A model generated the notes under the pieces. That model saw nothing but the letters and a program-made list of their open reading frames with translations, was not told the origin of the DNA and searched no databases. Of a DNA stretch of 64,000 nt, positions 5,115-26,560 are shown one piece after another. Both the position numbers and the translations under genes were made by a program. The DNA is taken from assembly GCA_027459725.1 (NCBI GenBank), contig DAIDHK010000003.1, forward strand, positions 64,931-128,930, given 5' to 3'. The number at the start of each line of letters is the position of its first letter. Position 1 is the stretch's first letter. The DNA comes from Candidatus Levyibacteriota bacterium (lineage in GTDB: Bacteria; Patescibacteriota; Microgenomatia; Levybacterales; UBA12049).

Positions 5115-5133
5115 TTCTTCTATTATACAGTAA

Positions 5134-8280: not shown

Positions 8281-8505
8281 ATGGCATTTTATTTTACCAA
8301 TAGTCAGAAAGAGGAGATCGGGAAAAACATCCGTCGGATCAGACGGAAGAAAGGCTTAAAACAGATCGATGTAGCGACCGCCGCTACGATCAATGAATCT
8401 TATTACTCCAAGGTAGAAAAGGGTCTGGCGAATATCACGCTCGAAAAGCTCTATAAAATTGTAAAAGCGCTGGACAGCCGAAGCGAAGATATTTTACCAT
8501 TCTAA
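8281..8505 (+). CDS. XRE-family helix-turn-helix transcriptional regulator
   Basis: HTH 'IRRIRRKKGLKQIDVATAATINESYYSKVEKG'. Start is placed at the internal Met because the track ORF's N-terminal 26 aa look non-coding. Confidence 0.6.
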   Translation: MAFYFTNSQKEEIGKNIRRIRRKKGLKQIDVATAATINESYYSKVEKGLANITLEKLYKIVKALDSRSEDILPF

Positions 8506-8538
8506 TCCTCATTCTTTACCAAGTCCACGCTTCACATA

Positions 8539-9324: not shown

Positions 9325-9411
9325 CGCATTGAATTTCTCCCTAAACACATGATATGCATTAAATGTTTTATGCAAGCAACGTAAATTTGTCTATACTGCT
9401 GCAAAATAAAT

Positions 9412-9684
9412 ATGAATCCAGCAGTTGATCTCTATTTCAAAACTCAAAGTCTCAACATTGCCTGCTTCTTGTTTGCCAAAGGGTTTGAACTCGTCAATAT
9501 CGATACCACTGTTGATCCCAAACGCGCAATGTTTGTCTTCGTTGATACTCCTGATCGCGAGCTTTTGCTCCAACAATATAGTTTTGCTCCTGAGGATAGT
9601 CCAACGGTGATATGCGACGTGCGGAAAATATTCTCCTCCCTGCGAACACTCAAAGAGAAATTGTACCAAGCAAAATATGAATAA
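9412..9684 (+). CDS. DUF5659-domain protein
   Basis: Pattern 'DLYFKTQSLNIACFLFAKGFELVNID...AMFVFVDT...LLLQQYSF' matches the small plasmid/phage-associated DUF5659 family. Preferred over the antisense ORF 9391-9780. Confidence 0.5.
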   Translation: MNPAVDLYFKTQSLNIACFLFAKGFELVNIDTTVDPKRAMFVFVDTPDRELLLQQYSFAPEDSPTVICDVRKIFSSLRTLKEKLYQAKYE

Positions 9685-11152: not shown

Positions 11153-11184
11153 TCAAACTGACCTATGGTTCTTAATCTTGACTA

Positions 11185-11619
11185 ATGAATGATAATAATT
11201 TCGCAAATACTATGTTTCGATACTACTTTGACCAGCGACCGATTGTTGAGAACGCACAGATGGTACGCGTCAGCACATTCGTCCGGGATCACTTGCGACA
11301 GTTCAAAAAGGTATATACCGAGTACTTCGGTAACCCACCCGACCTGTCGAACAGTAACCACATCAGCCTATTCCTCGACTGCGTGAACGGAAGAGCAAAA
11401 CTGAGCCTTAGCCAAACCATCAATGGCACAATTGAAACTTCAGAACCGAATCCTATCAAGCTGATGATTACGAACTCCAACTTGGGAAAAGGTTTTGTCT
11501 TCTGGTTTGTATGTAATAACTGTTGCCGCAAAGCTCGCATTCTCTATGTTCCGCCGTCTTCAACGACCTTTCTTTGCCGAATATGTCACATGCTGCGATA
11601 TCAGGGCAAACGCAAATAA
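11185..11619 (+). CDS. Hypothetical protein with a C-terminal 4-Cys zinc-ribbon
   Basis: 'CNNCCRK...CRICH'. Confidence 0.4.
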   Translation: MNDNNFANTMFRYYFDQRPIVENAQMVRVSTFVRDHLRQFKKVYTEYFGNPPDLSNSNHISLFLDCVNGRAKLSLSQTINGTIETSEPNPIKLMITNSNLGKGFVFWFVCNNCCRKARILYVPPSSTTFLCRICHMLRYQGKRK

Positions 11620-11631
11620 AAAACCTCTTGT

Positions 11632-11811
11632 ATGAAAGCACTTACCATATCAGACCTAAAAGAATTTCAAGAAGCTATACAAAAAGATTATGGACTAACA
11701 CTTGAAGAAACTGAGCTTCATGATGCAGCCTTCAACCTGCTTCAATATATTGAGACGTTAATTCAGTTTGACAAGGATAATAAAAAACCAGAGGGTTCTA
11801 AAGTCGTATAG
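11632..11811 (+). CDS. Small hypothetical protein (59 aa)
   Basis: ORF below the track cutoff, lying between the Zn-ribbon gene and the recombinase; no clear Shine-Dalgarno. Confidence 0.2.
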   Translation: MKALTISDLKEFQEAIQKDYGLTLEETELHDAAFNLLQYIETLIQFDKDNKKPEGSKVV

Positions 11812-11858
11812 GCGAACCCATTGATAACTGGCAATGGTCAGAACAAAATAAAATAACT

Positions 11859-13445
11859 ATGGAAGAAGCATTAACGATAAACAGAATCTCCAGTCAGCGG
11901 CAAGATGAAGGCTATTCTCTCCCACAACAGGCAAAGATGAATCGGGACAAAGCCGAAAGTGACGGCAGAAAAATAATAAAGGAGTTCAATATTATCGAAT
12001 CAGCTAAAGCGAGCGAAAAACGGGATGATTTCAACCAAATGGTCCAGTATCTTAAGTCCCACCCGAGCATACGGTATGTGTACATTGAAAAACCAGACAG
12101 GTTGACTCGCAACTTGAAAGATGCGACCTTGGCGTACGAACTCGTATATGAGTATGGTATCACCTTTATTTTTACCCGGGATAGTTTTATACTAAACAAA
12201 GATTCGAACTCACATGCAAAGTTTCAATTCGATATAAAAGCCGTGTTAGCAAAAAACTACATCGATAACTTATCAGACGAGGTCAAAAAAGGTCAGCGTG
12301 GAATGCTGGAAGAGGGAAAATGGCCAGGCGGCTCTTCACCGACAGGATACAAAAAGGAAAACAAACTACTTGTTCCCGACGAACCACGAGCTATTTTTGT
12401 CATTAAAACATTTGAATTATATGCTTCTGGCACTCATTCGTTAAAATCGCTTAAAAAAGAAATGGATAAACGAGGATTTAGTTCACAAAATAGAAAGCTG
12501 CTTACTAAAAGCAATTACTATAATATTCTCATCAACCCGATTTACTATGGCATGATGCGCTGGAATGGACGCTTCTATCAAGGGACACATCAACCACTTA
12601 TCGACAAAATGTTATTTGACAAAGTACAAGATATGCTCGCTCGTACCAAAAACGGCGAACTGATCCCCGTCTACGCCAAGCATGATCTAACCTATCGGGG
12701 AGTGCTCCAATGCGGCGAATGTGGCTGTAAAATCACTGCCGAGGAAAAAACAAAGACAAATAAAGGTAACGGCAAGATACATCACTGGACGTACTATCAT
12801 TGTACCCATTACAAACCCTGCTTACAAAAAGGTTGTGTACGCGAGGAGGAGATTGATTCACAAATCATTGCCTTGTTGAAAAACATATCACTAGGAACGC
12901 ATACGACGGAATGGCTGAAGAAACGACTGAAAGAGAGTCATCAGGACGAGATCGACTTCAGGAATCATCAGCTAACAGCTCTTAACACACAGCTTAATCA
13001 AGTTCTGGGAAGATTGGATAAGGTCTATGACGACAAACTCGACGGAGTGATTGATGAACTCACATACCACAGAAAACGGGAACAGTTTCTTGCAGAACGA
13101 TCAGATATTGAGACACAAATCAAACGAGACATGGTCTCTGATGATAAATATGTTGATTTTGGCTGCTTAGTATTAGATGTGGCAAACAGAGCTTCGGAGA
13201 TTTATCAGGTTCGAAAGTCGGACGAAAAGCGGTATCTTCTTAGTTTTGTATTTTCGAACCTCTTTTTACAGGACAAAGCAATCAAATTTAGATTCAAAAC
13301 TATCTTTGAAACAGTGTTACAGTACCAAGAAACAAGAAATGTGCTCCCCTTAATAGATATATTTAGGAAAGAAGAAATGCAAATAGATATTAGCTTGACT
13401 AATATAAAAACAATTTACGAAACCTTTAATATTGCCTTATATTAG
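11859..13445 (+). CDS. Large serine recombinase (integrase type)
   Basis: N-terminal resolvase domain with catalytic Ser context 'RISSQRQDEG'; zinc-ribbon 'CGECGC...YYHCTHY'; coiled-coil C-terminus; 528 aa. Confidence 0.85.
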   Translation: MEEALTINRISSQRQDEGYSLPQQAKMNRDKAESDGRKIIKEFNIIESAKASEKRDDFNQMVQYLKSHPSIRYVYIEKPDRLTRNLKDATLAYELVYEYGITFIFTRDSFILNKDSNSHAKFQFDIKAVLAKNYIDNLSDEVKKGQRGMLEEGKWPGGSSPTGYKKENKLLVPDEPRAIFVIKTFELYASGTHSLKSLKKEMDKRGFSSQNRKLLTKSNYYNILINPIYYGMMRWNGRFYQGTHQPLIDKMLFDKVQDMLARTKNGELIPVYAKHDLTYRGVLQCGECGCKITAEEKTKTNKGNGKIHHWTYYHCTHYKPCLQKGCVREEEIDSQIIALLKNISLGTHTTEWLKKRLKESHQDEIDFRNHQLTALNTQLNQVLGRLDKVYDDKLDGVIDELTYHRKREQFLAERSDIETQIKRDMVSDDKYVDFGCLVLDVANRASEIYQVRKSDEKRYLLSFVFSNLFLQDKAIKFRFKTIFETVLQYQETRNVLPLIDIFRKEEMQIDISLTNIKTIYETFNIALY

Positions 13446-13801
13446 ATACTTGAGTTTGAAGCAAGAATATGTGCGTTATGCACTACGTTTCCATTTATTT
13501 TTTCATCTTCACTAATTACAGCTCCTTCTTTATATTTTAAGAGCTCTTGAACAATGTGTTCAGTCTTAGGGAAAATCCCTAGCCTAGCAATTGTTGCCAT
13601 TTCCTCTGGCGTAAATGTTTGTATCAATAAAGCTCGAACCAGTGTGAAAATTTCATTTTTTGTTGTAGCATTTATCCAAGGAGCCGAAACAAGAACTGTC
13701 CATTTATCAGTAAATTCGTCCATTTTGAGAATGGCAAATAAATTAACTTCGCCTTTTTGTGTTCTTAATGTTGCCAGTATTTGTTTGAATTTTTCTACCA
13801 T
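13442..13801 (-). CDS. Hypothetical protein; start overlaps the stop of 13795-14244
   Basis: 119-aa ORF in a two-gene overlapping minus-strand operon. Confidence 0.4.
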   Translation of the reverse strand: MVEKFKQILATLRTQKGEVNLFAILKMDEFTDKWTVLVSAPWINATTKNEIFTLVRALLIQTFTPEEMATIARLGIFPKTEHIVQELLKYKEGAVISEDEKINGNVVHNAHILASNSSI

Positions 13802-14244
13802 TTTTTCCTTTCTTTTATTACTGTTAATATGCCATGCATTGGTTCAGTTAGATTTTGATGAAGACCTTCTACTGTTAGCTTATTCCAAACTGTTTTTGCA
13901 TCATATCTCATAGCTGGCCATTCACCTGGGTATTTCAATGTAAAATCAGACCAGTTTTCCCACGCTTCCTTAGGGCCTCTTGAACTAAAGATATTTTCTA
14001 AACCAGATACAATTAACAATTGCTCAAAGCGATGCGTCATGAAGTATGAATTTATCTTATCATTTTTCGTATTCTCTGGATATGTAACTAGATGCAACAC
14101 CTTGCATGTCGCTGCTTTCAAAGCACACTCTAATACATAACCTAGCATATACGCTGCTCCATGCCAATCATTTACTGACATAAGCGTTTCTGCACTTTTC
14201 AGCCTTGCTTTAGCAATCTTTCTTAATTCAGGACAGTTAGCCAT
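13795..14244 (-). CDS. Hypothetical protein (weak HEPN-like alpha-helical appearance, unconfirmed)
   Basis: 149-aa ORF; no clean Rx4-6H motif, so no family is assigned. Confidence 0.4.
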   Translation of the reverse strand: MANCPELRKIAKARLKSAETLMSVNDWHGAAYMLGYVLECALKAATCKVLHLVTYPENTKNDKINSYFMTHRFEQLLIVSGLENIFSSRGPKEAWENWSDFTLKYPGEWPAMRYDAKTVWNKLTVEGLHQNLTEPMHGILTVIKERKKW

Positions 14245-14516
14245 GGCTGAATTATACCATGCCCTTTAAGACAGGTTAATTTTCTTTTATATGATGACTA
14301 AATTAGCGATGTAATAATAAGGTAATAGTAAATGTAGAAGCCTAAGCAATTAATTCTCTCAAACAGAAATGAGATCTTATAATTTTTCTATCAATCTTTT
14401 GCTCATCAGTCAAATTTTTAGCTTGTTCACCAAGAATTTTTCTTGCTTTCTTCATATCCCTGCTCTTGAGTATACGTTACTCGAGCACTATAATGTAGCC
14501 GAAGATGTAATGAATT

Positions 14517-15620
14517 ATGATGAGTGGTAAAGAACAGATTTATTTCCTCATAGACGCAATTGATGACATAAGGACTATAACCCCTTCTGGTCGACCTTTG
14601 ATAATAGACCCAACAAATAAACTTAACCGTAACTATACAGATATTGAGTTAATGCAATTATTTACTAAACTGGAAAAAGACAAACAGATATTAAAGGTAT
14701 TAAAAATTCCACATAGGATAAAACAAACTGATATTGTTGAAAGACTTTACCCCTACGGCTATGCGGATGATGGCTGTTATCATATAGAACTACTTCCCGT
14801 CTTTGATGAATACTTTCACAATATGCAGAATGAGCCAGAGTATCAAGAATTTACAGGATATATACCTCCTGCAAAACAAGCTCAATCAAACGAATCACGA
14901 ATTGAAACTTTATATGAGAAAATAGCTGAGGTAGATGAGCAAATTAAAATAAGAAGAGAAGCATGGGCTAATGCTCAAGATACCATTAACAAGAACCCTT
15001 TTTATGCAGAAGCGACACGTGTTGGAAATCTTGCAAAACTTGAGCAACAGGCACAAACAGATATAGGAAATTTTATTAAGCAGAAAGAAACCTACCTAGA
15101 CGAAATCAGTTTGAGACAAGGAATACCTTTATCAAGAAATTCACAGACACAACAAGAAACTAATACACTTGCAAATCAATATGATCAACTTCTCAAAGAA
15201 GTAATGGAGCCAAATAACCCTACTCTTGATAGGAGGTATAATCAAGCTCTAAAAGAAATTAAATCTAGCCAACACATAATTAAACCTCAAACTGCACCAA
15301 GAGCAAATGATGTGAACTCATTCACTCTTACTGAAAACGTTTTATCTATCAACGGAAAAACGATAAAATTCAAAAAAGATGCAAGAACACTAGTATTACT
15401 AAAATCATTAGTAAAAAAGTCAAAAGGAATCTACTTTAGCGAGGAAGCAAAGAAACTTGAAGGAGCGATCGTAGACGATAATAAAGACCCCAAAGACATC
15501 TACTATGAAGTTTGCAGAGGAATTGAGAACAGATTAGCTAAAATGGGCATCACGAATTTTCTTGAATATGATTATAACCAAGCGAAAATAAATCCTCGGT
15601 ATAAAAATTTATCTAAATAG
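14517..15620 (+). CDS. Hypothetical coiled-coil protein with a possible C-terminal winged-helix
   Basis: 367-aa ORF with a Q/E-rich central region. Confidence 0.45.
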   Translation: MMSGKEQIYFLIDAIDDIRTITPSGRPLIIDPTNKLNRNYTDIELMQLFTKLEKDKQILKVLKIPHRIKQTDIVERLYPYGYADDGCYHIELLPVFDEYFHNMQNEPEYQEFTGYIPPAKQAQSNESRIETLYEKIAEVDEQIKIRREAWANAQDTINKNPFYAEATRVGNLAKLEQQAQTDIGNFIKQKETYLDEISLRQGIPLSRNSQTQQETNTLANQYDQLLKEVMEPNNPTLDRRYNQALKEIKSSQHIIKPQTAPRANDVNSFTLTENVLSINGKTIKFKKDARTLVLLKSLVKKSKGIYFSEEAKKLEGAIVDDNKDPKDIYYEVCRGIENRLAKMGITNFLEYDYNQAKINPRYKNLSK

Positions 15621-15685
15621 CCTCATTCTTCCGTATACGGAACGTAAACAGTTGGGTACGATTTCTCTTGTCTACACTCTGTTTA

Positions 15686-15826
15686 ATGACAACAAAAAAT
15701 GACAGTCAAAAACTAAAAACATTTCTCGAGCAGGTATATGGGAAAGAACTATCTGAAGCTGAAATTCAGGAATATAAAAACCGCTTAGTAAAACTCTTTG
15801 GTCTTTTTGTGACTATTGATAAATGA
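15686..15826 (+). CDS. Small hypothetical protein (46 aa); its stop overlaps the next ATG
   Basis: Short ORF 'MTTKNDSQKLKTFLEQVYGKELSEAEIQEYKNRLVKLFGLFVTIDK', below the track cutoff. Confidence 0.2.
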   Translation: MTTKNDSQKLKTFLEQVYGKELSEAEIQEYKNRLVKLFGLFVTIDK

Positions 15827-15849
15827 ACAAACAAGAAAAAGTAACGAAC

Positions 15850-16140
15850 ATGAAGATTTCAGAAATCCAAATTATACCTATAAAACCACAAAATGGTTTA
15901 GTAGGCTTTGCCAGCTTTGTTTTAGACAACAATATTTACCTAAGCTCCATTGGTATTATTACTCGGCCTGAAGGTGGTTATAGACTTCTTTATCCAACCA
16001 AAAAAGTCGGAATTAAAAATATTAACATCTATTATCCAATAAATAAGTCCTTTGCTACCTGTATTGAAAAGGGGGTCATCGATCAGTTTGAAAATGTAAT
16101 GAAAAAATATGATAGACACGATGAAACTGACATTAGATAG
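15850..16140 (+). CDS. spoVG: SpoVG-family nucleic-acid-binding protein
   Basis: 'MKISEIQIIPIKPQNGLVGFASFVLDNNIYLSSIGII...' matches the SpoVG N-terminal consensus; start placed at the internal Met. Confidence 0.55.
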   Translation: MKISEIQIIPIKPQNGLVGFASFVLDNNIYLSSIGIITRPEGGYRLLYPTKKVGIKNINIYYPINKSFATCIEKGVIDQFENVMKKYDRHDETDIR

Positions 16141-17245
16141 AAGCATGATCGCATTGATTGATAAAGATCTATTTCAAAAAGAAACACAGAATGCCTCACG
16201 AGGCTACTTTACACTCGTGCAAAATCCTACAAAATCAGAGCTACAGAATGGTATTTATAAACCTCGTCTAACACTTACAAAGAGATTTAATACATCAGGA
16301 CAACGAGGGCTGACACTGGCAATAGAGTTTTCTGCTCCAAAATTACTTTATGGTAATAACTTTGATGAGCTTGTGAACAGCGACTTCAATACTGTTATTT
16401 ATAAATTGGAAGAAGTATTAAAAAAAATGGGTGTAAGAGTGTTCCATGAATTACTTTTAGTCGCGCCTGTCTCAGCAATTCACTATTCTAAAAATATCCC
16501 TCTTACCGATGGTACTACGCCTCACTACCTTATTAGCAAGATAAAAGAAGCAAATATATCACTTGCTCTTGACGTAAACCAAACCGATTATAGAAATGAT
16601 GGACACAGCTATAAATGGCATGCTAACTCATATGAAGTAGCGTTTTACGACAAAATCAAAGACCTTGAAGCAGCAAAGAAAAGTAATAAACGAGCAATTG
16701 AAAAAGATAATGCGCTCCAGCTTCACTTGTTTGAAGACTTACAAAGAAAACGTTTAGAAATATTTCGGATGGAAGTACGACTCAACAGTAGACAAAAAAT
16801 GAAACAGTTATTTCCAAATCTGGGCATTGAAACAAAATTAACTTTTCAAAGTTTATTTACAGCTCAAATTTCTCAAAAAGTACTTTTGTATTATCTTTCA
16901 GAACTAGAAAAACGAAGACCGAAAATCATAGATTATCAAACTAAAAGATCTAAAGCTCTTTTGGCAGATATTATAGTTAATAATCCCACTCTTGGAGCAC
17001 AAAAAACTCTACAACTATTTGGTCTCAAACAAGCTATTGATGCCATTACTCCCCGTGAATTACGAGCTATGTTCGGAAATCAAAGCACTAGAAGCTGGTA
17101 TCGATTAATTACTGATGCTAAAACAGTTAAACTACCAGCCACACAAAGTCCGTTTCGCATAGTTCGTGAACGTTTGAATAAATTTGAGCCTCTTAAACTA
17201 GTTGACTTTCAAGACAAAATGATAAACAATGATAAATATAATTAG
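16109..17245 (+). CDS. Hypothetical protein, possibly a Rep_trans-like replication initiator/relaxase of an integrative mobilizable element
   Basis: 378 aa, located just upstream of the excisionase-like HTH gene; Tyr-containing stretch 'HANSYEVAFYDK'. The functional assignment is inference only. Confidence 0.3.
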   Translation: MIDTMKLTLDRSMIALIDKDLFQKETQNASRGYFTLVQNPTKSELQNGIYKPRLTLTKRFNTSGQRGLTLAIEFSAPKLLYGNNFDELVNSDFNTVIYKLEEVLKKMGVRVFHELLLVAPVSAIHYSKNIPLTDGTTPHYLISKIKEANISLALDVNQTDYRNDGHSYKWHANSYEVAFYDKIKDLEAAKKSNKRAIEKDNALQLHLFEDLQRKRLEIFRMEVRLNSRQKMKQLFPNLGIETKLTFQSLFTAQISQKVLLYYLSELEKRRPKIIDYQTKRSKALLADIIVNNPTLGAQKTLQLFGLKQAIDAITPRELRAMFGNQSTRSWYRLITDAKTVKLPATQSPFRIVRERLNKFEPLKLVDFQDKMINNDKYN

Positions 17246-17420
17246 TATGTCAGAAGAACAATATTACTCTATTGAAGAAGTAGCAAAGATGCTAAAAGTA
17301 GCTTATTTAACTGTCTATCGATGGATACAAGCAAAGAGACTCATTGCTTTAAAAGCTGGTAAACAATATAGAGTTACAAAAAAAGATCTAGATGCTTTTC
17401 TCAATAGTTACAAGGGATAA
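17229..17420 (+). CDS. Excisionase-family/MerR-like HTH DNA-binding protein (putative Xis or recombination directionality factor)
   Basis: 'YSIEEVAKMLKVAYLTVYRWIQAKRLIALKAGKQYRV' resembles the excisionase-type HTH_17 domain. Confidence 0.6.
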   Translation: MINIISMSEEQYYSIEEVAKMLKVAYLTVYRWIQAKRLIALKAGKQYRVTKKDLDAFLNSYKG

Positions 17421-17426
17421 ATCGTT

Positions 17427-20400
17427 ATGAACTTAATAAACAAAAGACTATTAGCTCAAAAGATAGAATCGTTTGAGTTTCCAACAGGAGAAAAACAAGT
17501 ATTATCAAAGAAGCTTATTAATGGCTGGCAAAAAGCATTAAAGGATAGTGATTTAGAAAAAACAAAAGAAAAAACAGTACAGGGCAAATTTCTTAATACT
17601 TTCTTTGAAGAAATTTTAGGATATACGGATGTAACAATTGGACAAAACGAATGGACTTTAATTCAACACCCCAGAATTGAAAATGACAGCATGGAACCTG
17701 ATGGCAGTCTAGGATGGTTTACAAAAGACCAAAAGCTCACACGAGCTGTTATTGAATTAAAAGACGCTAAGACTCCTTTAGACAAGAAACAACTAAGTCG
17801 AGTTGGAAAGTATACACCTATAGAACAAGCCTACCTTTATGCAACAAAATATGAAGGATGCAACTGGATTATTGTTTCTAACTTTAAAGAAATAAGACTT
17901 TATAATAAGCAGAAAACACAAGAATATTACGAAAAGTTTGATGTTCTAGATTTAAATAATGAATCAGAATTTAAACGTTTTTATTATTTGTTTTCTAAAG
18001 AAAACTTTCTATCGAAGGATAAAGAAAGTACCATAGACATCTTAGCAAAGGACACGACTGTTGAAGAACAAAATATTACTAAAAAGTTTTACTCTGAATT
18101 TAAACAAATTAGACTAGATTTATTAAATCATCTCGTAAACCATAATCCTACGTTATCAAAAGATGTTTTGTTAGAAAAAACTCAGAAACTTTTAGATAGA
18201 TTTATATTTACACTTGTGTGTGAAGATACAAGTAGTTTACTTCCCCTTAATATAGTTAAGGATACGTATGAACGAGCAATAAATTCCTTCTCACCTACCG
18301 ACGAGCGTGTATGGACTGAATTTAAAGGATTATTTCTTGCAATAGATAAAGGTAACAGTAGAGTAAAACCTCCTATTAACGCATATAATGGAGGGCTGTT
18401 TGCTTTTGATAATGTTCTAGACAATTTAAAAATAAAAGACGATATATGGGAGCAATTAATCGAGCTTGCGAAATATGACTTTGAGACTGATCTTAATGTG
18501 AATATTTTAGGTCATATTTTTGAACAAAGCATCTCAGATTTAGAATCAATTAAAGAGACAATCACTTTGGGGCTTGAAAACGGAGGTAGTTTGCTAACTG
18601 AAGATGGTAATAAAATTGAGATAGGATCAAAAGAGACTACTAAGGAAAAAGTTGGCAAACGCAAAAAGGATGGTATCTTTTATACGCCTGAATATATAAC
18701 TCGATATATTGTTGAAAATACAGTAGGAAAATATTTAGAGGAACACCCTGATAAGTTAGAAACAATAAAAGTACTCGATCCAGCTTGCGGAAGCGGAGCA
18801 TTTTTAAATCAGGCTCATTCATTCCTTTTTAAAGAACATCGAAATAGATATGAAGCTAAAATAAACGAGAAGTTAGAAAGAAAAGAAAATCTTACATTGT
18901 TTGACTACAACCCAGCAGAAGCAGATAGAAGTATTCTGTTAAATAATCTTTATGGTGTGGATCTAAACATAGAGAGCGTAGATATTACTAAACTTGCCTT
19001 ATGGCTGAAAACTGCAAGAAGAACTGAACCACTACAAAGTCTTGATAAAAACATTAAATGTGGCAATTCTCTTATTGATGACGCTACTATAGCAGGTAAG
19101 CACGCTTTTACTTGGAAGAATGAATTTAAGGATATACTCGAATCTGGTGGGTTTGATGTAATCATTGGAAACCCTCCTTATGTATTTGGAAGAGAAAAAT
19201 TTAGTGAAATTGAAAAAACTTACTATAGCCAAGCCTATAATTCATTTGAATATCAAACAAATCTTTTTATATTATTTATCGAGCAGGCTATACGATTACT
19301 CAAATCTCAAGGCTATCTAGGCTTTATCATTCCAAACTCACTCCTAAAAATTTCATCCGCTAAAAAACTTAGAAAGTACCTTTTTGAACATGGTGCTGTA
19401 AAAAACATCATTAATCTTTATGGTGTGACGTTTGAAGATGCAAGTGTTGAAACAGTCATTCTAATTTTCCAAAAAAATGTCGAGCAATCGGACGTAAAAA
19501 TCTTAAATGTGTATGAAGAAAATGATATTACACTACAAAAGTATAAAATTGTTGATGGTATAAAATGGAAACAGAATATAAATTCTGACTTTGACGTATT
19601 TATAAATATAAATGACGAAAAAATTCTTCAAAAAATGCATACTCATACACATCATTTAGAAGTCAGTTTTGATGTTAAGGCAGGTTTACAAGCGTACGAA
19701 AAAGGGAAAGGTATACCGATTCAAACAGCAGAAGATGTCATAAACCGACCTTATGACTTCCAAACAAAAGTAGACGAAAATACTTATCCCTATTTAGATG
19801 GAGTAAACATTGTTCGCTATTATCAAAACGGCTATGCCTATTGGTTGCGATACGGAGAACAATTAGCCGCACCTAGAACTTTTGATATTTTTGAAAGACC
19901 AAGATTACTAGTAAGAGAAATTACTTCAAATTTTCCAAGAGCAATTATTGCTACTTATTTAGATGAAATTTACTTAAACAATAGAAGCATAATCAATATC
20001 CTTTCTCCCCAAAATGATCCTAAATCCTTAAAGGCACTATTGGCAGTGCTAAACAGTTCTTTAATTTCTTATTATTTTGAGAAGACCAATCCCAAGGCAA
20101 ATCGGAAAATGTTTCCCAAAATTATATTACAAGACTTAAGAAAATTTCCTATTCCTCCTATTAACGATAAAGAAAAAGAACTTCTTGCTGAAAAAGTTGA
20201 CATAATGATTGACCTTAATAAAAAATTTTACAAAGCTACTTATGAAGCAATTTTATTCCTTAAAGAAGAATATTCCATCAATAAAATATCATCTAAATTA
20301 GAAACTTTCTATATGCTTGGTTGGAATGAATTTTTTCAAGAACTTGAAAAATCTAAAATAAAGTTAAATATTACTAAAAAAGAAGAATTACATTCTTGGT

Positions 20401-20537
20401 TTAAATCGAAACAAGATAGTTTAAACGGAATATTAAAGCAAATTAGTACAATTGATAAACAAATTGACCTATCTATTTTTGATTTATACCACATAACACC
20501 AGAAGAAAAAGAGATTGTAGAATCAACGGAATCATGA
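17427..20537 (+). CDS. Type IIL/IIG restriction-modification enzyme, MmeI family (fused PD-ExK endonuclease, N6-adenine methyltransferase and target-recognition domain)
   Basis: N-terminal 'EPDGSLGW...AVIELKDAK' is a D-x(n)-E-x-K motif. 'FFEEILGY' and 'IIVSNFKEIRLYN' match the MmeI N-terminal pattern. Methyltransferase motif I is 'DPACGSGAF' and motif IV is 'IGNPPYV'. 1036 aa. Confidence 0.7.
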   Translation: MNLINKRLLAQKIESFEFPTGEKQVLSKKLINGWQKALKDSDLEKTKEKTVQGKFLNTFFEEILGYTDVTIGQNEWTLIQHPRIENDSMEPDGSLGWFTKDQKLTRAVIELKDAKTPLDKKQLSRVGKYTPIEQAYLYATKYEGCNWIIVSNFKEIRLYNKQKTQEYYEKFDVLDLNNESEFKRFYYLFSKENFLSKDKESTIDILAKDTTVEEQNITKKFYSEFKQIRLDLLNHLVNHNPTLSKDVLLEKTQKLLDRFIFTLVCEDTSSLLPLNIVKDTYERAINSFSPTDERVWTEFKGLFLAIDKGNSRVKPPINAYNGGLFAFDNVLDNLKIKDDIWEQLIELAKYDFETDLNVNILGHIFEQSISDLESIKETITLGLENGGSLLTEDGNKIEIGSKETTKEKVGKRKKDGIFYTPEYITRYIVENTVGKYLEEHPDKLETIKVLDPACGSGAFLNQAHSFLFKEHRNRYEAKINEKLERKENLTLFDYNPAEADRSILLNNLYGVDLNIESVDITKLALWLKTARRTEPLQSLDKNIKCGNSLIDDATIAGKHAFTWKNEFKDILESGGFDVIIGNPPYVFGREKFSEIEKTYYSQAYNSFEYQTNLFILFIEQAIRLLKSQGYLGFIIPNSLLKISSAKKLRKYLFEHGAVKNIINLYGVTFEDASVETVILIFQKNVEQSDVKILNVYEENDITLQKYKIVDGIKWKQNINSDFDVFININDEKILQKMHTHTHHLEVSFDVKAGLQAYEKGKGIPIQTAEDVINRPYDFQTKVDENTYPYLDGVNIVRYYQNGYAYWLRYGEQLAAPRTFDIFERPRLLVREITSNFPRAIIATYLDEIYLNNRSIINILSPQNDPKSLKALLAVLNSSLISYYFEKTNPKANRKMFPKIILQDLRKFPIPPINDKEKELLAEKVDIMIDLNKKFYKATYEAILFLKEEYSINKISSKLETFYMLGWNEFFQELEKSKIKLNITKKEELHSWFKSKQDSLNGILKQISTIDKQIDLSIFDLYHITPEEKEIVESTES

Positions 20538-21997
20538 TGAAAACAATAATAATAGCAAGAGTATCAACAGAAGAGCAGAAAGAAGCGAACAATTCTCTAC
20601 CCGCTCAGATTGCACGACTCAAAAAGTACAGTCAAAATAAAGGCTTTGAAATAATCAAAGAGTTTAGCTTTGATGAAAGTGCATATAAGACCCAGCGTAA
20701 TGATTTTGATAGTATTCTAGACTATGTAATCGAACAAAAAGATAAACTAGCTGTTTGCTTTGATAAGGTAGATAGACTATCCCGCAATATTTTTGATAAA
20801 CGCGTATCTATGCTCTATGAGAAGGCACTAAAAGACGAGATAGAGCTTCATTTTGTATCAGACGGACAAGTAATAAATAGTCAGCTATCCGCAGTAGAAA
20901 AATTTAATTTTAGTATCAGTCTTGGGCTTGCTAAATACTACTCTGATGCTATAAGCGATAACGTCAAACGAGCACAAGAACAAATGCTTCGAATGGGAAC
21001 TTATCCAAGTAGACCTTCATTTGGTTACAAGCGAGTACCCATAGGAAAAGATAAGACAGAAATTGTAATTGATGAATTTGCTTCTCGTATCGTTCAAAAA
21101 GCCTACGAATGGTACGCAACTGGTAGCTTTTCAATGGATTTACTACGCAAGAAGTTAAAAACAGAATACGGTGTTAATTGGTCACATGGCTGGACTGATA
21201 AAATCCTCAAAGATACATTTTATTGTGGAGTAATGAAATGGAATAAGAAGTTATACCCACATAAATATCAGCCAATTATTACTAAATCCCTATTCGACCA
21301 AGTACAGCTAATAAAAGTTGGGTTTAATAAAAAAAGATTTAAGTTTGCAGGTTTACCTTATATCTACAGAGGCTTACTACGTTGTGGGCATTGTGGACTA
21401 TCTGTAACACCTGAAAAGCACAAAGGGCTAGTCTATTACCATTGCACGCAATATAACGGCAAACATGGGGCTGAATGGCTACGGGAAGAAGATATAACTA
21501 ACCAGATAGGAAATGTCTTTAAGAATATGCGTGTGCCTGAATGGGTTATAGAACAAATCGTTGACGCATTACGGACAACGCATGAAAGTAAAATTGATTT
21601 TCGAGAGAAGCAATACAGCAAACTATCAGAAGAACACGAAATGTATAGTAAAAGACTAGAAAAACTATACCTTGATCGATTAGACGGGCGTATTACTGAT
21701 AATGAGTATGACAAATTTTATCAGTCCTTCCGTGAACAGATAGCAGATATTGATACTCGACTAAGTATGCTACAAGAAGCAGATGATAACTACTACATCA
21801 CGGCTAAATACCTGTTAGAACTGGCAAATAAAGCGTATGAATTGTTTGTAAGTTCGGAAGTTGAAGAAAGAAGGCAATTAATCAAGCTTGTACTATCGAA
21901 CCTTAGAGTAGAAGGTAAAATAGTCCGATATGACGCCCAAAAACCTTTTGATACGATACTAAATTTCGCTGATCATCAACGTTGGCTCCGCGACTAG
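20534..21997 (+). CDS. Large serine recombinase (integrase type)
   Basis: 'IARVSTEEQ' catalytic region, zinc-ribbon 'RCGHCG...YYHCTQY', coiled-coil C-terminus. Start overlaps the RM gene stop (ATGA). The stop TAG at 21995-21997 lies inside tRNA-Asn. Confidence 0.9.
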   Translation: MMKTIIIARVSTEEQKEANNSLPAQIARLKKYSQNKGFEIIKEFSFDESAYKTQRNDFDSILDYVIEQKDKLAVCFDKVDRLSRNIFDKRVSMLYEKALKDEIELHFVSDGQVINSQLSAVEKFNFSISLGLAKYYSDAISDNVKRAQEQMLRMGTYPSRPSFGYKRVPIGKDKTEIVIDEFASRIVQKAYEWYATGSFSMDLLRKKLKTEYGVNWSHGWTDKILKDTFYCGVMKWNKKLYPHKYQPIITKSLFDQVQLIKVGFNKKRFKFAGLPYIYRGLLRCGHCGLSVTPEKHKGLVYYHCTQYNGKHGAEWLREEDITNQIGNVFKNMRVPEWVIEQIVDALRTTHESKIDFREKQYSKLSEEHEMYSKRLEKLYLDRLDGRITDNEYDKFYQSFREQIADIDTRLSMLQEADDNYYITAKYLLELANKAYELFVSSEVEERRQLIKLVLSNLRVEGKIVRYDAQKPFDTILNFADHQRWLRD

Positions 21998-22057
21998 GAT
22001 TCGGACCTAGAACCTTGAAGTTAACAGCTTCCTGCTCTACCGTTGAGCTATCGCGGA
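21983..22057 (-). tRNA. tRNA-Asn (anticodon GTT), with encoded CCA
   Basis: Hand-folded cloverleaf. Acceptor UCCGCGA/UCGCGGA is a perfect 7 bp. D-arm is GCUC-AACGGUA-GAGC. Anticodon loop is CUGUUAA. T-arm is CUAGG-UCCGAAU-CCUAG. Discriminator is G, followed by CCA. Confidence 0.85.
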
Positions 22058-22130
22058 ATGTGACGATATTTTATCATCAAAGAGTGAGGAAATCCACCCC
22101 TGCATAGTTTAAGTTTAATATGAACAGTGG

Positions 22131-22496
22131 TCATTTCTTTGCTCTCAAAGCAAAAATGAAGCTAATCCAAAAATATAATAGAAGCAATTGCCAAAATATG
22201 ATAGAAAATAGGAGAGTTCCCAAAATGACAGAAATTATTTCACGGTGAATGCCAGCAGGAGAGACAAAAAGAGCTGTTACTCTGCCTGCCAGAAAAAGCA
22301 TAAGTAATCCTATGAGAGGAGAAAAAATTACCGGGAATAAGATTGGTCGTCTGGTTATTGTACGAGAAGAAATAAATGGATAAAAAGTTAATCCAAGCAG
22401 TGTTTTTGTCCAGACATAACTTACAAAAATAAGAAATACGTGTTTTCGCATAAGATTAGAATGGCCAATGGAGATGCACCAGGCCAAATCCTCCAA
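22131..22496 (-). CDS. Membrane protein, putative C-terminal part of an anti-sigma factor
   Basis: Three TM helices; overlaps 22456-22710 by 41 nt in another frame. Confidence 0.3.
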   Translation of the reverse strand: MEDLAWCISIGHSNLMRKHVFLIFVSYVWTKTLLGLTFYPFISSRTITRRPILFPVIFSPLIGLLMLFLAGRVTALFVSPAGIHREIISVILGTLLFSIIFWQLLLLYFWISFIFALRAKK

Positions 22497-22710
22497 ATAT
22501 TTTCAAAATATTGTCATCATAGGACTTACCCAGGGCAAATTGCAAAATTAAAGATAATAAGAAAGCCAAAGGAATAAGAAGACGATAAGGATTTTCTCCC
22601 AGTGATGTTGCCATCCATGAAAAAAGATCAGGAAAAGGAACACGCTTCATGATCTGTTCTTGCTCACGAGCGCGTTGTTGTAATCTATGCAGAAAATCAT
22701 GTTCGTTCAT
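22456..22710 (-). CDS. Putative anti-sigma factor N-terminal segment
   Basis: Immediately downstream of the ECF sigma gene and overlapping it; one TM helix. Confidence 0.35.
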   Translation of the reverse strand: MNEHDFLHRLQQRAREQEQIMKRVPFPDLFSWMATSLGENPYRLLIPLAFLLSLILQFALGKSYDDNILKIFGGFGLVHLHWPF

Positions 22711-23230
22711 AGTATTTAATAAACTGCTGTCTGGCTCTATAGAGCAGCGATTCTGTTGCTTTATATGATAAATCTAATTCAATAGCGAGCCTTTTGACTG
22801 GAATATGCTCTTCATAGTGCTGTCTAAGAACTTGTTGATGTTTTGCTGACAAACAACTTAGAGCTGTCTCAATACTATCTTGTAGTTTATTTTTTTCAAA
22901 TTGAAAGTCAGGGCTATAAATTTCTTCTGCTACTAATTCTAATAGTGGTATTTGGGATAATAAGAAGACTTTAATTTTCCTTTTACGGTAGAAGTCAGCT
23001 ACTTTATTATGAGCAATTTTAAATAACCATGCCGTGAGTTTGTTTTCATCTTTGAGCATAATAATCGAATCAATAGCTTCAAAAAAAATGTCATCCAGGA
23101 TTTCTTGTGCGTCTTCTTCCCGCCCAAGCTTAGTTCGTAAGAAGCGAGCAATTTTAGGGGAATAGGTTTTATGGAAAGACTCAATTGCCTGAGAGTCTCC
23201 TTGTTTTAGCTTCTTGATTATTGAACTCAT
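22697..23230 (-). CDS. ECF-subfamily RNA polymerase sigma-70 factor
   Basis: Region 2 'DIFFEAIDSI...AWLFKIAHNKVADFYRKR' and region 4 'LSAKHQQVLRQHYEEHIPVKRLAIELDLSYKATESLLYRARQ'. Confidence 0.8.
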   Translation of the reverse strand: MSSIIKKLKQGDSQAIESFHKTYSPKIARFLRTKLGREEDAQEILDDIFFEAIDSIIMLKDENKLTAWLFKIAHNKVADFYRKRKIKVFLLSQIPLLELVAEEIYSPDFQFEKNKLQDSIETALSCLSAKHQQVLRQHYEEHIPVKRLAIELDLSYKATESLLYRARQQFIKYYERT

Positions 23231-23306: not shown

Positions 23307-24596
23307 TTGAGCAATAAATGGTATCGTGTTTTTATTGTCATCAATAACGTTGAGGTCTATACTGGATATAGCTACATTATTAAACTAATGAGTACTATTT
23401 TCAATATAATAAAAACAAAAAAGTTAATTTTTATAATCTTAGTAGTTTTTGTTATCTTTTTCTTACTGCGTTACTTTTTGTTGAGTCCAAACAGCACAGA
23501 CTTGGTATATAAAGTTACCCGGGAAAACTTGGTCGACAGCGTACAGGTAAGTGGAACATATGAAACGGCTGCTCAGACTTCAGTAACTTCTCCCACCAAT
23601 GGAATACTTGATAAAATTTATGTCAAAAATGGTGACATAGTTCAAAGGGGAGCTCCCTTATTTCATGTAGAGAGTAGCGCAACAGATGCTCAAAAAAAAT
23701 CAGCTTATGCTGACTATATGACAGCAAACAGCCAACTGCAGGCTGACAAATCTGCTCTTTATGCCTTACAATCTAGTATGTATTCAGCTTGGAAAACTTA
23801 CACCGATTTAGCTACAAATACTACTTATGAAAATGCAGACGGCAGTCCCAATACAACCAATCGGAGTTTACCGCAATTTACTACAGTACAGGATAATTGG
23901 TTAGCAGCTGAGGACAACTATAAGAATCAGCAGAATGTAATAGCTAAGGATCAGGCCGCTCTAGATTCAGCCCAACAGAATTATGCCCAAACACAAAGTG
24001 TTACGGTTAATGCACCTGTAACCGGTACGGTTGAAAATTTGTTGTCTACCAATGGTGATCAGGTAACTGCAGACAACACTTCTGTAGTTATTTCTGCAAA
24101 TACGGCTGGACAGTCTGCTGTGTCTGCTTCTGTAGCAAGTCCAATACTGGTGATTAGTAATATGGCCAATCCATATATTACTGCAGATATCAGCGAGGAC
24201 TACGCGGCTAGTATTGAAGCTGGACAGAGAGTCTCTATTGTTTTTGATGCTTTGAAAAATAAGACTTTTAGCGGTCATGTGGAAGCTGTGAATACAATCG
24301 GAACAACCGTCGGCGGAGTGGTGGATTATACAGCACGGATTTATGTAAATAATCTTTCCAGCAATATTAAACCGGGTATGACAGCTCTCATTACCATTGA
24401 AACTTTGAGAATAGATCATGTGTTAGATGTTCCCAATAGCGCCCTAATAAACAAAGGTAGTTTATATTTTGTAGAGTTAGCGCAAACACATAAATTAGTT
24501 CCGGTTGAAATAGGTACGAGGGGAGTATCCAAAACTGAAATAAAAAATGGTTTGCCTGTCAATACACTCATTCTTGCCAATCCAGGTGTAAATTAA
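23307..24596 (+). CDS. HlyD-family efflux periplasmic adaptor (MacA-like)
   Basis: N-terminal TM helix and coiled-coil region, then beta-barrel/lipoyl-like segments; paralog of 57943-59235. Confidence 0.75.
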   Translation: MSNKWYRVFIVINNVEVYTGYSYIIKLMSTIFNIIKTKKLIFIILVVFVIFFLLRYFLLSPNSTDLVYKVTRENLVDSVQVSGTYETAAQTSVTSPTNGILDKIYVKNGDIVQRGAPLFHVESSATDAQKKSAYADYMTANSQLQADKSALYALQSSMYSAWKTYTDLATNTTYENADGSPNTTNRSLPQFTTVQDNWLAAEDNYKNQQNVIAKDQAALDSAQQNYAQTQSVTVNAPVTGTVENLLSTNGDQVTADNTSVVISANTAGQSAVSASVASPILVISNMANPYITADISEDYAASIEAGQRVSIVFDALKNKTFSGHVEAVNTIGTTVGGVVDYTARIYVNNLSSNIKPGMTALITIETLRIDHVLDVPNSALINKGSLYFVELAQTHKLVPVEIGTRGVSKTEIKNGLPVNTLILANPGVN

Positions 24597-24597
24597 T

Positions 24598-25869
24598 ATG
24601 ATGTGGAAAGAAAATTCTCTCTATGTTGGATTTTTTCTGGCTCTTCGTGAGATAAAACGTACCAGTTTTTGGACGACTGCCTTAATTATCTTTGTCATGA
24701 TGATGACATTTTTTAACATGAACTTAGTTGGGGGTGTACTACTGGGGATTGCGCATGGAGTGATTGGATCATATAAACAGTATTATTCCGGTGACATCAT
24801 TATTACTCCAGCGACAGATAAAAGTAACATTGAGGACACCAATACGATCGTAGAAGTTATAAAAAGTATACCGACGTTTCAAAGCCTAACAGTACGTTAC
24901 ACGGCACCTGCTCTTGTTGAGTATGGTTATCAGAATAAGCTAAAACCAACTGATTTGTCAGAAAGTGCGGATGCTACTTTAACTGGTATTGATCCGCAAG
25001 CAGAAAATAATGTAACCAACTTATCCAAAGCGATTGTGGCAGGCTCATATCTGTCTCCTTCAGATGTTGATGAAGTTTTGGTTGGAGCTAGTTTAATAAA
25101 GAAGTATGCTTCCTTACGCGGATCAGTTACTACTTTGGGGGCCAAGATTCTTCGAACTCCTGATATTGGATCGAAAATCAGAATTACGGTTGATGGTGCT
25201 CAAAAAGAAGTGTTTATCAAAGGCATTGTTTCCACACAGGGTACAAATATTGATACGCGTATTTTTATGAATTCCACAGCCATGCGAGAGCTAATAGGTA
25301 ATACTAATCTTGATTCTGGGGAGATAGCAGTTAAGTTACTTCCCACTGCATCTGAGGAACAAGCAAAAGCATATTTAGAGAATAACCTTAAGAACAACAA
25401 AGATATTTTAATTCAGACTGCTAAAGATGCACTTCCAGGTGGAGTGAGCGATGTTATAAATACTTTCACTATTTTGGGAAATGTAGTGGGTGGCATTGCG
25501 CTCATCGTTGGTGCTGTCACTATCTTTATTGTTATTTTTGTTAATGCAGTGACGAGAAGAAAATACATTGGGATTCTCAAAGGTATCGGTATCTCGGCAC
25601 TGGCAATAGAATTTTCTTATATTCTGCAAGCGATATTTTATGCATTCTCAGGTATCGTAATTGCCAGTATCCTGATTCAATGGTTGTTTGTGCCATATTT
25701 TGCCCTACATCCAATTAGCTATCCTATTGCTAACGGTTCACTGGCTATTACTTCTTCCGATTTACTGTTTCATGGTGGGTTATTGCTAATAACGTCCTTG
25801 CTGTCTGGGTTTATCCCGGCTTGGTTGGTTACTAGGCAAAATACATTAGATGCTATATTGGGGAGATGA
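24598..25869 (+). CDS. ABC transporter permease, FtsX/MacB type
   Basis: N-terminal TM helix, large periplasmic domain and a C-terminal 3-TM FtsX domain. Confidence 0.75.
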   Translation: MMWKENSLYVGFFLALREIKRTSFWTTALIIFVMMMTFFNMNLVGGVLLGIAHGVIGSYKQYYSGDIIITPATDKSNIEDTNTIVEVIKSIPTFQSLTVRYTAPALVEYGYQNKLKPTDLSESADATLTGIDPQAENNVTNLSKAIVAGSYLSPSDVDEVLVGASLIKKYASLRGSVTTLGAKILRTPDIGSKIRITVDGAQKEVFIKGIVSTQGTNIDTRIFMNSTAMRELIGNTNLDSGEIAVKLLPTASEEQAKAYLENNLKNNKDILIQTAKDALPGGVSDVINTFTILGNVVGGIALIVGAVTIFIVIFVNAVTRRKYIGILKGIGISALAIEFSYILQAIFYAFSGIVIASILIQWLFVPYFALHPISYPIANGSLAITSSDLLFHGGLLLITSLLSGFIPAWLVTRQNTLDAILGR

Positions 25870-25870
25870 T

Positions 25871-26560
25871 ATGATTCACATTGAAAATTTAACTAAAAAA
25901 TTTTATATGGGAGATACAGAGCTCATTGCCCTTAAAGGTTTGAGTTTTGATGTTCCTACCGGACAATTTATATCTATAACCGGTCGTTCAGGTGCGGGTA
26001 AAAGTACCTTATTATATAATATGAGTCTACTGGACAAACCGACTTGTGGAAGTGTGACGATTGATGAACAAGTAGTTACCGAGATTGATGATCAAAAAAG
26101 GGTAGCTTATCGTTTGAACAATTTTGGTTTCATTTTTCAGGAATATGCTCTGATTCCTACCTTAACTTCAATTGAAAATGTGATGTTACCTCTTCTTATG
26201 CAGGGGGTGAAACGAAAAGAGCTGGAATTAGAAGCACTGCAAGCTTTGCAAAAAGTTGGTTTGATAGACAAATTAAAAAATCTCCCAAGTCAGCTTTCAG
26301 GTGGACAACAGCAAAGAGTTGCTATCGCCAGGGCGATTGCACACAATCCTAAAATAATCTTTGCCGACGAGCCGACGGCAAATCTGGATACCATTTCTTC
26401 ACAGGAAGTATTAGATATTTTTATAAAACTCAATAAAAACGGACAAACAATTATCATGGTTACTCACGAGCCTGAGTATGCGAGACTTGCTCATAGAACA
26501 ATTGAATTGTCTGATGGTCTGATTATATTAGACAAGTTAAACAGTGTTAAGAAGCGGTAA
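25871..26560 (+). CDS. ABC transporter ATP-binding protein (MacB/LolD-like)
   Basis: Walker A 'GRSGAGKST', signature 'LSGGQQQRVAIARA', Walker B 'IIFADEPT'. Start placed at the internal Met just after the permease stop. Confidence 0.9.
   Translation: MIHIENLTKKFYMGDTELIALKGLSFDVPTGQFISITGRSGAGKSTLLYNMSLLDKPTCGSVTIDEQVVTEIDDQKRVAYRLNNFGFIFQEYALIPTLTSIENVMLPLLMQGVKRKELELEALQALQKVGLIDKLKNLPSQLSGGQQQRVAIARAIAHNPKIIFADEPTANLDTISSQEVLDIFIKLNKNGQTIIMVTHEPEYARLAHRTIELSDGLIILDKLNSVKKR

Follow-up and report, generated by a model that had tools for sequence, protein, structure and literature searches.

A Type IIG restriction-modification gene as probable exchangeable cargo of a compact element integrated at tRNA-Asn in Patescibacteria

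At P2/P4 hotspots, unrelated defence systems replace each other at one position. Serine integrases are known in combination with rolling-circle initiators in Firmicute integrative and mobilizable elements (IMEs), and in SSV1-type integrases the attachment site of the element (attP) lies within the integrase coding sequence. Defence cargo on tRNA islands and hotspots at which defence systems are replaced are well known, as in reports on pipolins (PMC11551731), Tn7 cargo (PMC8649781) and small serine recombinases as defence markers (PMC13552941). Phage Mx8 carries attP within int, the gene of its tyrosine integrase, and integration gives this gene a new 3' end (PMC6070905). The serine integrases of phiRv1 and TP901-1 have small Xis-like recombination directionality factors (RDFs; PMC1470463). 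In this report, we analyse a 64,000-nucleotide stretch of Candidatus Levyibacteriota bacterium (contig DAIDHK010000003.1, positions 64,931 to 128,930; hereafter the window) that holds a single-chain restriction-modification (RM) gene between a small HTH_17 gene and a large serine recombinase gene. We consider it highly probable that the RM gene is exchangeable defence cargo of a compact site-specific integrative element at tRNA-Asn in Patescibacteria. Sequence comparison provided the limits of the element, its tRNA-Asn target, a conserved backbone, a variable slot, intact enzyme motifs and an in-frame junction.

The element resembles IMEs and tRNA islands (PMC5704250; Islander/TIGER, PMC4383910) in its integrase beside a tRNA with a restored 3' end, its short end repeats, its tandem arrays and its RM cargo. 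It differs from them in its Patescibacteria host, in its backbone of SpoVG-like, putative G2P-like Rep and HTH_17 genes, in a fixed cargo slot embedded in an operon and in an attP inside the recombinase open reading frame (ORF). No relaxase or transfer genes were recognised in the element. A mobile backbone with one position for interchanging defence systems is shared with pipolins, Tn7 and the small serine recombinase loci; here, the position is flanked by a small HTH gene on one side and a large serine recombinase gene on the other, inside one operon. The attP within the integrase gene is common to this element and phage Mx8, but here the gene encodes a large serine recombinase and about 32 C-terminal residues are exchanged. 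The HTH_17 gene can be likened to the phiRv1 and TP901-1 RDFs by sequence family and location, as an excisionase-like small protein encoded with a large serine recombinase. A full-text literature search of incomplete coverage returned no description of an element family with this backbone, a fixed slot, a Patescibacteria host and a serine recombinase whose attP lies in its ORF.

The RM gene (17427-20537, forward strand) encodes 1036 aa. The HTH_17/excisionase-family gene (17229-17420, forward; 63 aa) lies directly upstream of the cargo slot, and the gene for the large serine recombinase LSR2 follows in its integrated form (20534-21997, forward; 487 aa). The HTH stop codon TAA ends at 17420 and the RM start codon ATG is at 17427, which leaves a 6-nt spacer; the RM stop codon TGA shares the sequence ATGA with the recombinase start codon at 20534-20537. 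A first-pass annotation of the window had placed the three ORFs, their motifs, the RM start 7 nt past the HTH gene and the ATGA overlap in just this way. It had also described the RM gene as the penultimate gene of an integrative element, abutting the HTH gene and the large serine recombinase on either side, and we found the same. The Resolvase, Recombinase and Zn_ribbon_recom domains of Pfam are all above their cut-offs in LSR2, and its N-terminal motif IIARVSTEEQ includes the expected serine. By these domains and this motif, LSR2 is classed as a large serine recombinase (integrase).

The RM-carrying element (E3) occupies 13347-21988 (8.64 kb), between two GCTCC cores. The left attachment core (attL, 13343-13347) is followed by CCTTAATAGATAT... 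and fits a conserved left-end motif; the right core (attR, 21985-21989) lies within TGGCTCC, at the 3' end of tRNA-Asn. The integration target is an intact tRNA-Asn(GTT) gene (21983-22057, reverse strand), identified with ARAGORN and scored at 62.8 bits by the Rfam tRNA model. The left-end motif, GCTCC[C/G]CCTAGTAGACGC..., bounds the element family in L095-L098, L103, L109, L110 and L111, with differing flanks. One element, recognised by an identical 379-aa protein, was found in four flanks (L095-L098). Its right ends are the same through ...CAACTCTGGCTC (ending CTGGCTC) and divergent beyond, and its left ends are the same from GCTCCGCCTAGTAGACGC... onward and divergent to the left. A variant whose left cargo is an MFS transporter shares this left end, GCTCCCCCTAGTAGACGC..., and was likewise seen in four flanks. 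Because identical elements in different flanks diverge there on both sides, the common core is GCTC(C). Read as its reverse complement, this core covers the final bases of the tRNA-Asn acceptor stem, the discriminator base and the first C of CCA. The final 15 nt of the LSR2 ORF coincide with the 3' end of tRNA-Asn, and this tRNA adjoins the recombinase in at least nine loci, including L095, L096, L099, L100, L102, L106, L109 and L111. As in tRNA-integrated islands, an integrase gene thus stands beside an intact tRNA, with GCTCC repeats at 13343 and 21985. The predicted attP of LSR2 reads ...CAACGTTGGCTCCCCTTAATAGA..., and the predicted junction of the excised circle reads ...GATCATCAACGTTGGCTCCCCTTAATAGATATATTTAGG....

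The true direct repeat is only 5-7 nt long and was found by comparing related loci. Searches within the window gave no 21-nt copy of the tRNA 3' end elsewhere, even at 3 mismatches, a single chance-level match in a 12-nt search for this end, and chance-level matches only for the left-end motif ATTCTGYAACMATAAA. A left boundary at 2079, or at 13445, where the recombinase gene of the neighbouring element (LSR1) stops, was dropped once the GCTCC core and the left-end motif had been found at 13343.

Two further observations concern the tRNA targets. Only the 3' half of tRNA-Asn stands beside the recombinase in L093 (about 12940-13000) and L098 (about 6160-6260), broken near the anticodon loop by a common sequence (GGACTATCTCATCACC); this interruption could be another insertion or a tRNA intron. 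In more distant serine-recombinase elements with related Type IIG genes, the terminal tRNA gene is a different one (His, Thr). Their recombinase ORFs as called (L011, 8228-10036; L048, 11244-12923; L016, 8677-10263; L045, 800-2380) contain all or most of this tRNA in antisense orientation.

The variability of the slot was assessed in 20 loci gathered via six homologues of p378, the 378-aa protein encoded directly upstream of the HTH gene. Wherever the contig was long enough, the order was the same: a protein of about 350 aa (220-524 aa), sometimes a small gene, a SpoVG-like protein, a protein of about 379 aa, HTH_17 (55-67 aa), cargo and a large serine recombinase. Identity to the window proteins in L093, L095 and L099 was 88%, 82% and 76% for the recombinase, 80%, 71% and 65% for p378, 69%, 66% and 69% for HTH_17, and 66%, 60% and 59% for the SpoVG-like protein. 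The slot holds two small unknown genes in L093, a 295-aa RrnaAD-family methylase in L095-98, L103-105, L109, L111 and L112, a Type I hsdM-hsdS-hsdR set in L099-102, an EcoRI-type methylase with a GmrSD_N/HNH nuclease in L106-108, and a different PD-ExK/N6-methylase protein in a second element of L097. Throughout, the first cargo gene begins 0-8 nt past the HTH stop codon. The end of the cargo falls anywhere from 4 nt short of the recombinase start to 23 nt inside the recombinase gene. All the cargo types seen but one, the small genes of L093, include a methyltransferase. The borders of the cargo showed no recombination motif in common.

Because a conserved backbone is combined with unrelated genes in the slot, the RM gene is best read as exchangeable cargo, and the earlier suggestion of defence cargo on an island was the right one. 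The same annotation had called the arrangement unusual. For related elements, the layout of HTH_17, slot and recombinase is the usual one and the slot genes differ. Since the RM gene occupies an exchangeable slot, the tight spacing of HTH gene, enzyme and recombinase reflects normal element design and no special link among the three genes.

The slot was also approached from the enzyme. In a survey of 79 metagenomic loci encoding relatives of the RM protein, the cassette with a related Type IIG gene was present in three. L034 encodes an enzyme 82% identical, with p378 and HTH upstream. The enzyme of L016 is 54% identical overall (63% over residues 1-718) and is found with SpoVG-like, p378 and recombinase genes and tRNA-His. 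In L046, the enzyme is 40% identical and stands between HTH and recombinase genes, again with a 4-nt RM/recombinase overlap. Most distant RM relatives in this survey have no HTH or recombinase gene beside them. A scan of genome contigs yielded five loci only.

The small HTH gene bears on two other explanations. It matches Pfam HTH_17 (2e-15, 56.9 bits, cut-off 27), TIGR01764 'excise' (9e-15, 54.8 bits, cut-off 28.8) and phrog_66 'excisionase and transcriptional regulator' (1e-9), and it occupies the same position in all backbone-carrying loci, regardless of cargo. Since equally similar copies (66-69%) precede unrelated cargo, HTH_17 is a backbone gene. Its product may act in excision, as its family suggests, or may control transcription of the cargo and the recombinase within the operon, which would suit its presence before related Type IIG genes in L001 and L003 and its conservation in L009 and L011. 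The description of this gene as excisionase-like agrees with its TIGR01764 and HTH_17 matches, which fit the winged-helix fold of the excisionase family, but the gene belongs to the backbone of the element and is no partner of the RM enzyme.

One explanation takes HTH_17 to be the excisionase (RDF) of the recombinase and the RM enzyme to be kept beside the integrase to stabilise the element by post-segregational killing. The excisionase-family matches, the constant company of HTH_17 and recombinase in the backbone and the precedent of the Xis-like RDFs of phiRv1 and TP901-1 all fit this idea. However, the HTH protein is 50-59% identical in L009 and L011 though the recombinase there is only 23-27% identical, and it occurs in L001 without a recombinase nearby. 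Related elements carry non-RM cargo in the slot (the small genes of L093, RrnaAD), which argues that the element can do without RM addiction. Addiction would also be less effective with R and M fused in one polypeptide, as the two activities would decay together. The first-pass annotation had offered RM-mediated stabilisation of the element as one reading; we found no direct support for it and regard the combined explanation, with HTH_17 as excisionase, as possible but rather doubtful.

A second explanation joins HTH_17 and the Type IIG enzyme in a two-gene defence unit, with HTH_17 as a controller protein or as the first half of a pair like mad1/mad2 of MADS, which entered the element as one piece. 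HTH immediately precedes a related Type IIG gene in L001, L002, L009, L011 and L034, and in L003 it is the first gene of an HTH-GmrSD-IIG operon. The PADLOC models mad1 and mad2 match HTH (4e-10) and the enzyme (4e-21), respectively, an N-terminal stretch of the PADLOC Type II methylase model PDLC03348 matches HTH, and the HTH protein of the window is closest (81%) to that of L034, the nearest RM relative. Against this, HTH_17 genes of 66-69% identity precede unrelated cargo (Type I RM, RrnaAD, small genes), and the NCBIfam scores are 43.9 for MAD1 (cut-off 80) and 59.6 for MAD2 (cut-off 720). L003 is probably a decayed element, with a C-terminal remnant of a recombinase just upstream. We consider a defence unit of this kind unlikely, and the exchangeable slot behind a backbone HTH gene remains the preferred reading.

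The cargo enzyme itself appears intact. The methylase motifs DPACGSGAF and NPPY are residues 451-459 and 582-585 of the 1036-aa protein. In an alignment with 30 homologues (46-63% identical to the window protein), D92, E110 and K112 are invariant, and in an AlphaFold model (mean pLDDT 82) they lie within an alpha-beta-beta-beta-alpha-beta core. The catalytic D/E/K residues named in advance as a check are thus retained in all 30. Another proposed check, a hidden Markov model search against Type IIG families, returned the PADLOC REase_MTase_IIG model PDLC03609 at E = 6e-110. Pfam matches were Eco57I (1e-42), N6_Mtase (2e-24), TaqI_C (8e-16) and MmeI_Mtase (1e-16, 61.3 bits, cut-off 27), with a marginal pass for MmeI_N (29.1 bits, cut-off 27). 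MmeI_hel was under its cut-off of 27 (18.5 bits), and MmeI_TRD, for the target-recognition domain (TRD), and MmeI_C gave no match at E<=0.01. The domain order is an N-terminal PD-(D/E)xK nuclease, a helical spacer, a gamma-class N6-adenine methylase, a TaqI_C-like specificity domain and C-terminal helices. The order of nuclease, helical spacer, gamma-class methylase (motif I, then NPPY) and specificity domain is the same in the Type IIG/IIL enzymes BpuSI (3S1S), DrdV (7LO5) and MmeI (5HR4).

Within this class, the enzyme stands well apart from MmeI. When a profile built from the 30 homologues was run against the PDB, the leading matches were CamA (2e-40), BseCI (7e-31) and BrxX/PglX (1e-30), then TaqI (2e-18), BsaXI (2e-15) and DrdV (4e-14). 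MmeI (5HR4) was rank 21 of 24 at E = 1.8e-6, over profile positions 258-648 only. Full-length fold matches of the model were BrxX/PglX (9e-27, 1061 aligned columns), DrdV (5e-20) and BpuSI (2e-19), and MmeI was not among the top 50 Foldseek matches. The methylase and specificity region resembles CamA, BseCI, PglX and TaqI; compared with MmeI, the specificity domain is TaqI_C-like and the methylase-TRD part is nearer to CamA, BseCI and PglX. A single-chain RM gene, as annotated, is borne out by the PADLOC, Pfam and full-length fold matches, which agree on Type IIG. The label MmeI-family is correct insofar as MmeI_N and MmeI_Mtase pass their Pfam cut-offs, but it is too narrow, as MmeI is a distant relative only. 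From the domain matches, the invariant D92/E110/K112, motifs I and IV and the full-length homologue and fold matches, the 1036-aa protein is assigned to Type IIG as an intact enzyme that shares the broad architecture of BpuSI, DrdV and PglX, and it is no close relative of MmeI.

The fold similarity to BrxX/PglX, which extends over all of the roughly 1050 residues and includes a common Eco57I-type methylase and TaqI_C-type specificity region, raises the alternative of a PglX-like methyltransferase without nuclease activity, either orphan or BREX-derived. BrxX/PglX is the best full-length fold match and BREX-1 PglX the top NCBIfam match. The latter, however, scores 132.8 against a cut-off of 500, and other BREX types are also far below theirs. 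PADLOC favours Type IIG (6e-110) over PglX (3e-26), and no BREX component was matched among the element genes scanned. The window enzyme has the invariant D...ExK triad in its predicted nuclease core and stands alone in the element. A PglX-like methyltransferase that lacks the nuclease activity is therefore very unlikely. With NCBIfam scores far under the cut-offs and no partner genes in the element, the enzyme belongs to neither BREX nor MADS.

Some homologues are 63-70% identical across the first two thirds of the enzyme only. L016, L022 and L024 match residues 1-700 and 865-1034, with the gap between unmatched. In P0027, P0042, P0045, P0059, P0062, L016, L022 and L024, the nuclease and methylase are 55-72% identical and residues of about 700-865 are unrelated, which points to a swap of the target-recognition/specificity domain among relatives. 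An exact look-up of the RM protein sequence found no identical entry on record, and the proteins of the window are singletons that stem from a single NCBI contig of 133 kb. The enzyme is a new and otherwise ordinary member of the known Type IIG class.

The attachment site attP falls within the recombinase gene. Integrated LSR2 ends in ...HQRWLRD, and its final two codons and stop are antisense tRNA-Asn sequence. The left end of the element (13347-13445, forward) holds the last 32 codons and stop of a serine-recombinase tail, in frame. A virtual circle junction, with the right end joined to the left, keeps the LSR2 frame and gives a protein of 517 aa that ends ...HQRWL-PLIDIFRKEEMQIDISLTNIKTIYETFNIALY. 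The same joining in L095, L109 and L111 gives 518 aa with homologous tails, WL[PR]LVDAFCN.KIEF.... Since attP lies within the ORF, integration swaps the last 32 LSR2 residues for two residues encoded antisense to the tRNA, and for the same reason otherwise identical recombinases are called as 486, 495, 517 or 521 aa, depending on the flank. The last 33 codons of LSR1 (stop included) come from the left end of the RM element. In arrays, the upstream recombinase takes its C-terminal 33-37 residues or so from the next element (window 13347-13445; L096 6744-6854; L109 5115-5223). Because the upstream recombinase ORF reads through the junction, neighbouring array elements share coding sequence.

These features lead to a more far-reaching proposal, namely that Patescibacteria harbour a so far undescribed family of small 'RM shuttle' elements, marked by a dedicated operon-embedded slot and an integration-dependent switch of recombinase isoform. 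We hold it to be plausible but tentative, with the balance somewhat against it. If true, the slot between HTH_17 and recombinase would carry a methyltransferase-containing system in nearly all variants. Only the excised circle would encode the full 517-aa LSR2; an integrated copy would encode 487 aa, or an array form finished by the left end of the neighbour. The isoform switch could set directionality or stability together with HTH_17, and the G2P-like Rep could amplify the circle.

A recombinase adjoining an RM gene might also act on that gene itself, with on/off switching or specificity shuffling by inversion. The RM gene does contain a perfect 16-nt inverted repeat (17869-17884 and 18753-18768), a length reached in 1% of codon-shuffled controls. 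The repeat is, however, a coding coincidence of the conserved peptide motifs IIVSNF and KLETI with reverse-complement codons. It is merely 5-12 nt long in homologues and has no similarity to the GCTCC att core, and the recombinase sites are located at the element ends. We regard inversion within the RM gene as highly improbable and take LSR2 to be the integrase of the whole element.

The forward backbone operon begins with the gene for a 367-aa protein (14517-15620, forward). This protein has no Pfam or PHROG match and is weakly similar (E = 1e-7) to the 347-aa gene product at the same position in L095-L098. The next gene encodes a SpoVG-like small nucleic-acid-binding protein (15823-16140, forward; Pfam SpoVG 4e-8, 33.7 bits, cut-off 29.6) and is followed by the p378 gene (16109-17245, forward). 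The genes from the SpoVG-like gene to the recombinase abut or overlap, and they appear to be co-transcribed. No plus-strand terminator-like site was found in 13300-22300, and a promoter scan gave 36 sites against 35.7 in shuffles, which is chance level.

p378 has 1746 homologues; the best 120 listed are 62-82% identical, and every named source among those is Patescibacteria. An exhaustive profile search gave 1244 clusters at 50% identity. The AlphaFold2 model of p378 (pLDDT 77.9, pTM 0.81) matches predicted viral proteins at E = 1e-9 to 8e-6, with unnamed viral models at 1e-9 and the Inoviridae 'Replication-associated protein G2P' at 8e-6. One family member, P0395, clears the Pfam model Phage_CRI (PF05144, the N-terminal part of G2P), with 28.3 bits where 21.7 are required; three further members reach 17-21 bits. 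IMG/VR held no relative of p378. With moderate confidence, p378 is probably a divergent rolling-circle replication initiator of the G2P/Phage_CRI type, as judged from its model and family.

Taken with the boundaries and the slot, these proteins are consistent with the following course. LSR2 would have inserted the element at the GCTCC core that closes the 3' end of tRNA-Asn, without disrupting the tRNA. In the integrated state, the cargo would be transcribed along with the backbone operon, and the enzyme would methylate host DNA at its own site and cut unmethylated incoming DNA. LSR2 may excise a circle, perhaps aided by HTH_17. The p378 Rep may replicate this circle by the rolling-circle mode, and the circle could re-integrate at tRNA-Asn of a new cell. 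The simplest route for an exchange of cargo among elements would be homologous recombination within the conserved genes on either side of the slot.

Several points weigh against the reading of the RM gene as exchangeable cargo of a mobile element. A related Type IIG gene lies directly downstream of HTH_17 in L001 and, with GmrSD between, in L003, with no backbone or recombinase nearby, and HTH and RM may sometimes travel as a pair. The window p378 itself has no Pfam match and no PDB fold or PDB profile match. No circular form or empty site was observed, and we infer mobility for the window copy from its boundaries. The enzyme activity likewise rests on sequence, from which the cutting of unmethylated DNA is predicted. 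Lastly, tandem arrays do not follow from this mechanism, as a hybrid site should not serve a serine integrase as attB.

The window contains three tRNA-Asn elements in tandem (E1, E2 and E3). E1 is the oldest remnant (640-2078, forward), a frameshifted LSR2-like recombinase pseudogene with tblastn matches in three frames (35-45% identity) that ends exactly at the TGGCTCC core at 2072-2078. E2 is the older neighbour element (2079-13346, forward; 11.3 kb), between the GCTCC cores at 2074-2078 and 13343-13347. It carries LSR1 (11859-13445, forward), 32% identical to LSR2, together with a GNAT acetyltransferase (2214-2738, reverse), an rve-family IS transposase (3212-4171, reverse), a DUF1801 gene (4722-5114, reverse), an HTH_3 gene and several unknown proteins. 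GC content is 39-44% in the 9-13 kb part of E2 versus 31-34% in the RM element. Comparable arrays are present in L093, L096, L097 and L109. An LSR1-like element lies directly to the left of the SpoVG/p378 element in L093, too.

At its left end, E3 has a second set of cargo genes, encoding a 119-aa protein (13442-13801, reverse) and a 149-aa HEPN-like protein (13795-14244, reverse; HEPN E = 3.9e-4, 21.0 bits, just under the cut-off of 22). A phrog_5737 match (3e-10) falls in this left-end cargo, and the two genes are possibly a toxin-antitoxin pair. In related elements, the left-cargo position is taken by def, an MFS transporter or small genes. In the commonest variant sampled (L095-L098, L103-L105, L109-L112), an RrnaAD (Erm/KsgA-like) methylase in the slot is combined with a peptide deformylase or an MFS transporter to the left. 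Such a combination suggests antibiotic resistance more than defence against phages.

Outside the array, the chromosomal RarA shares 74% identity with a 'Patescibacteria group' protein and 68% with one from Levybacteria. This places the host in Patescibacteria, in agreement with the sources named for relatives of the element. An ECF sigma factor gene (22697-23230, reverse) lies just right of tRNA-Asn. Two MacAB-like sets of HlyD and FtsX-permease genes are located at 23307-26560, where there is also an ABC ATPase gene, and at 55957-59235. GC content drops to 21% at 63001-64000, versus about 35% elsewhere in the window.

The mobile elements of Patescibacteria (candidate phyla radiation) are poorly known, and the family described here is abundant, with the Rep-like gene alone forming 1244 clusters. 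The element is compact, with ends defined to the base pair and a defined tRNA-Asn target. In LSR2, the idea that integration alters the C-terminus of a serine recombinase can be put to the test. As a natural serine integrase with predicted att sites, LSR2 may also be of use for genetic work in organisms with few such tools. For the reduced genomes of its hosts, the element shows a route by which RM systems, and possibly resistance genes, may pass among them.

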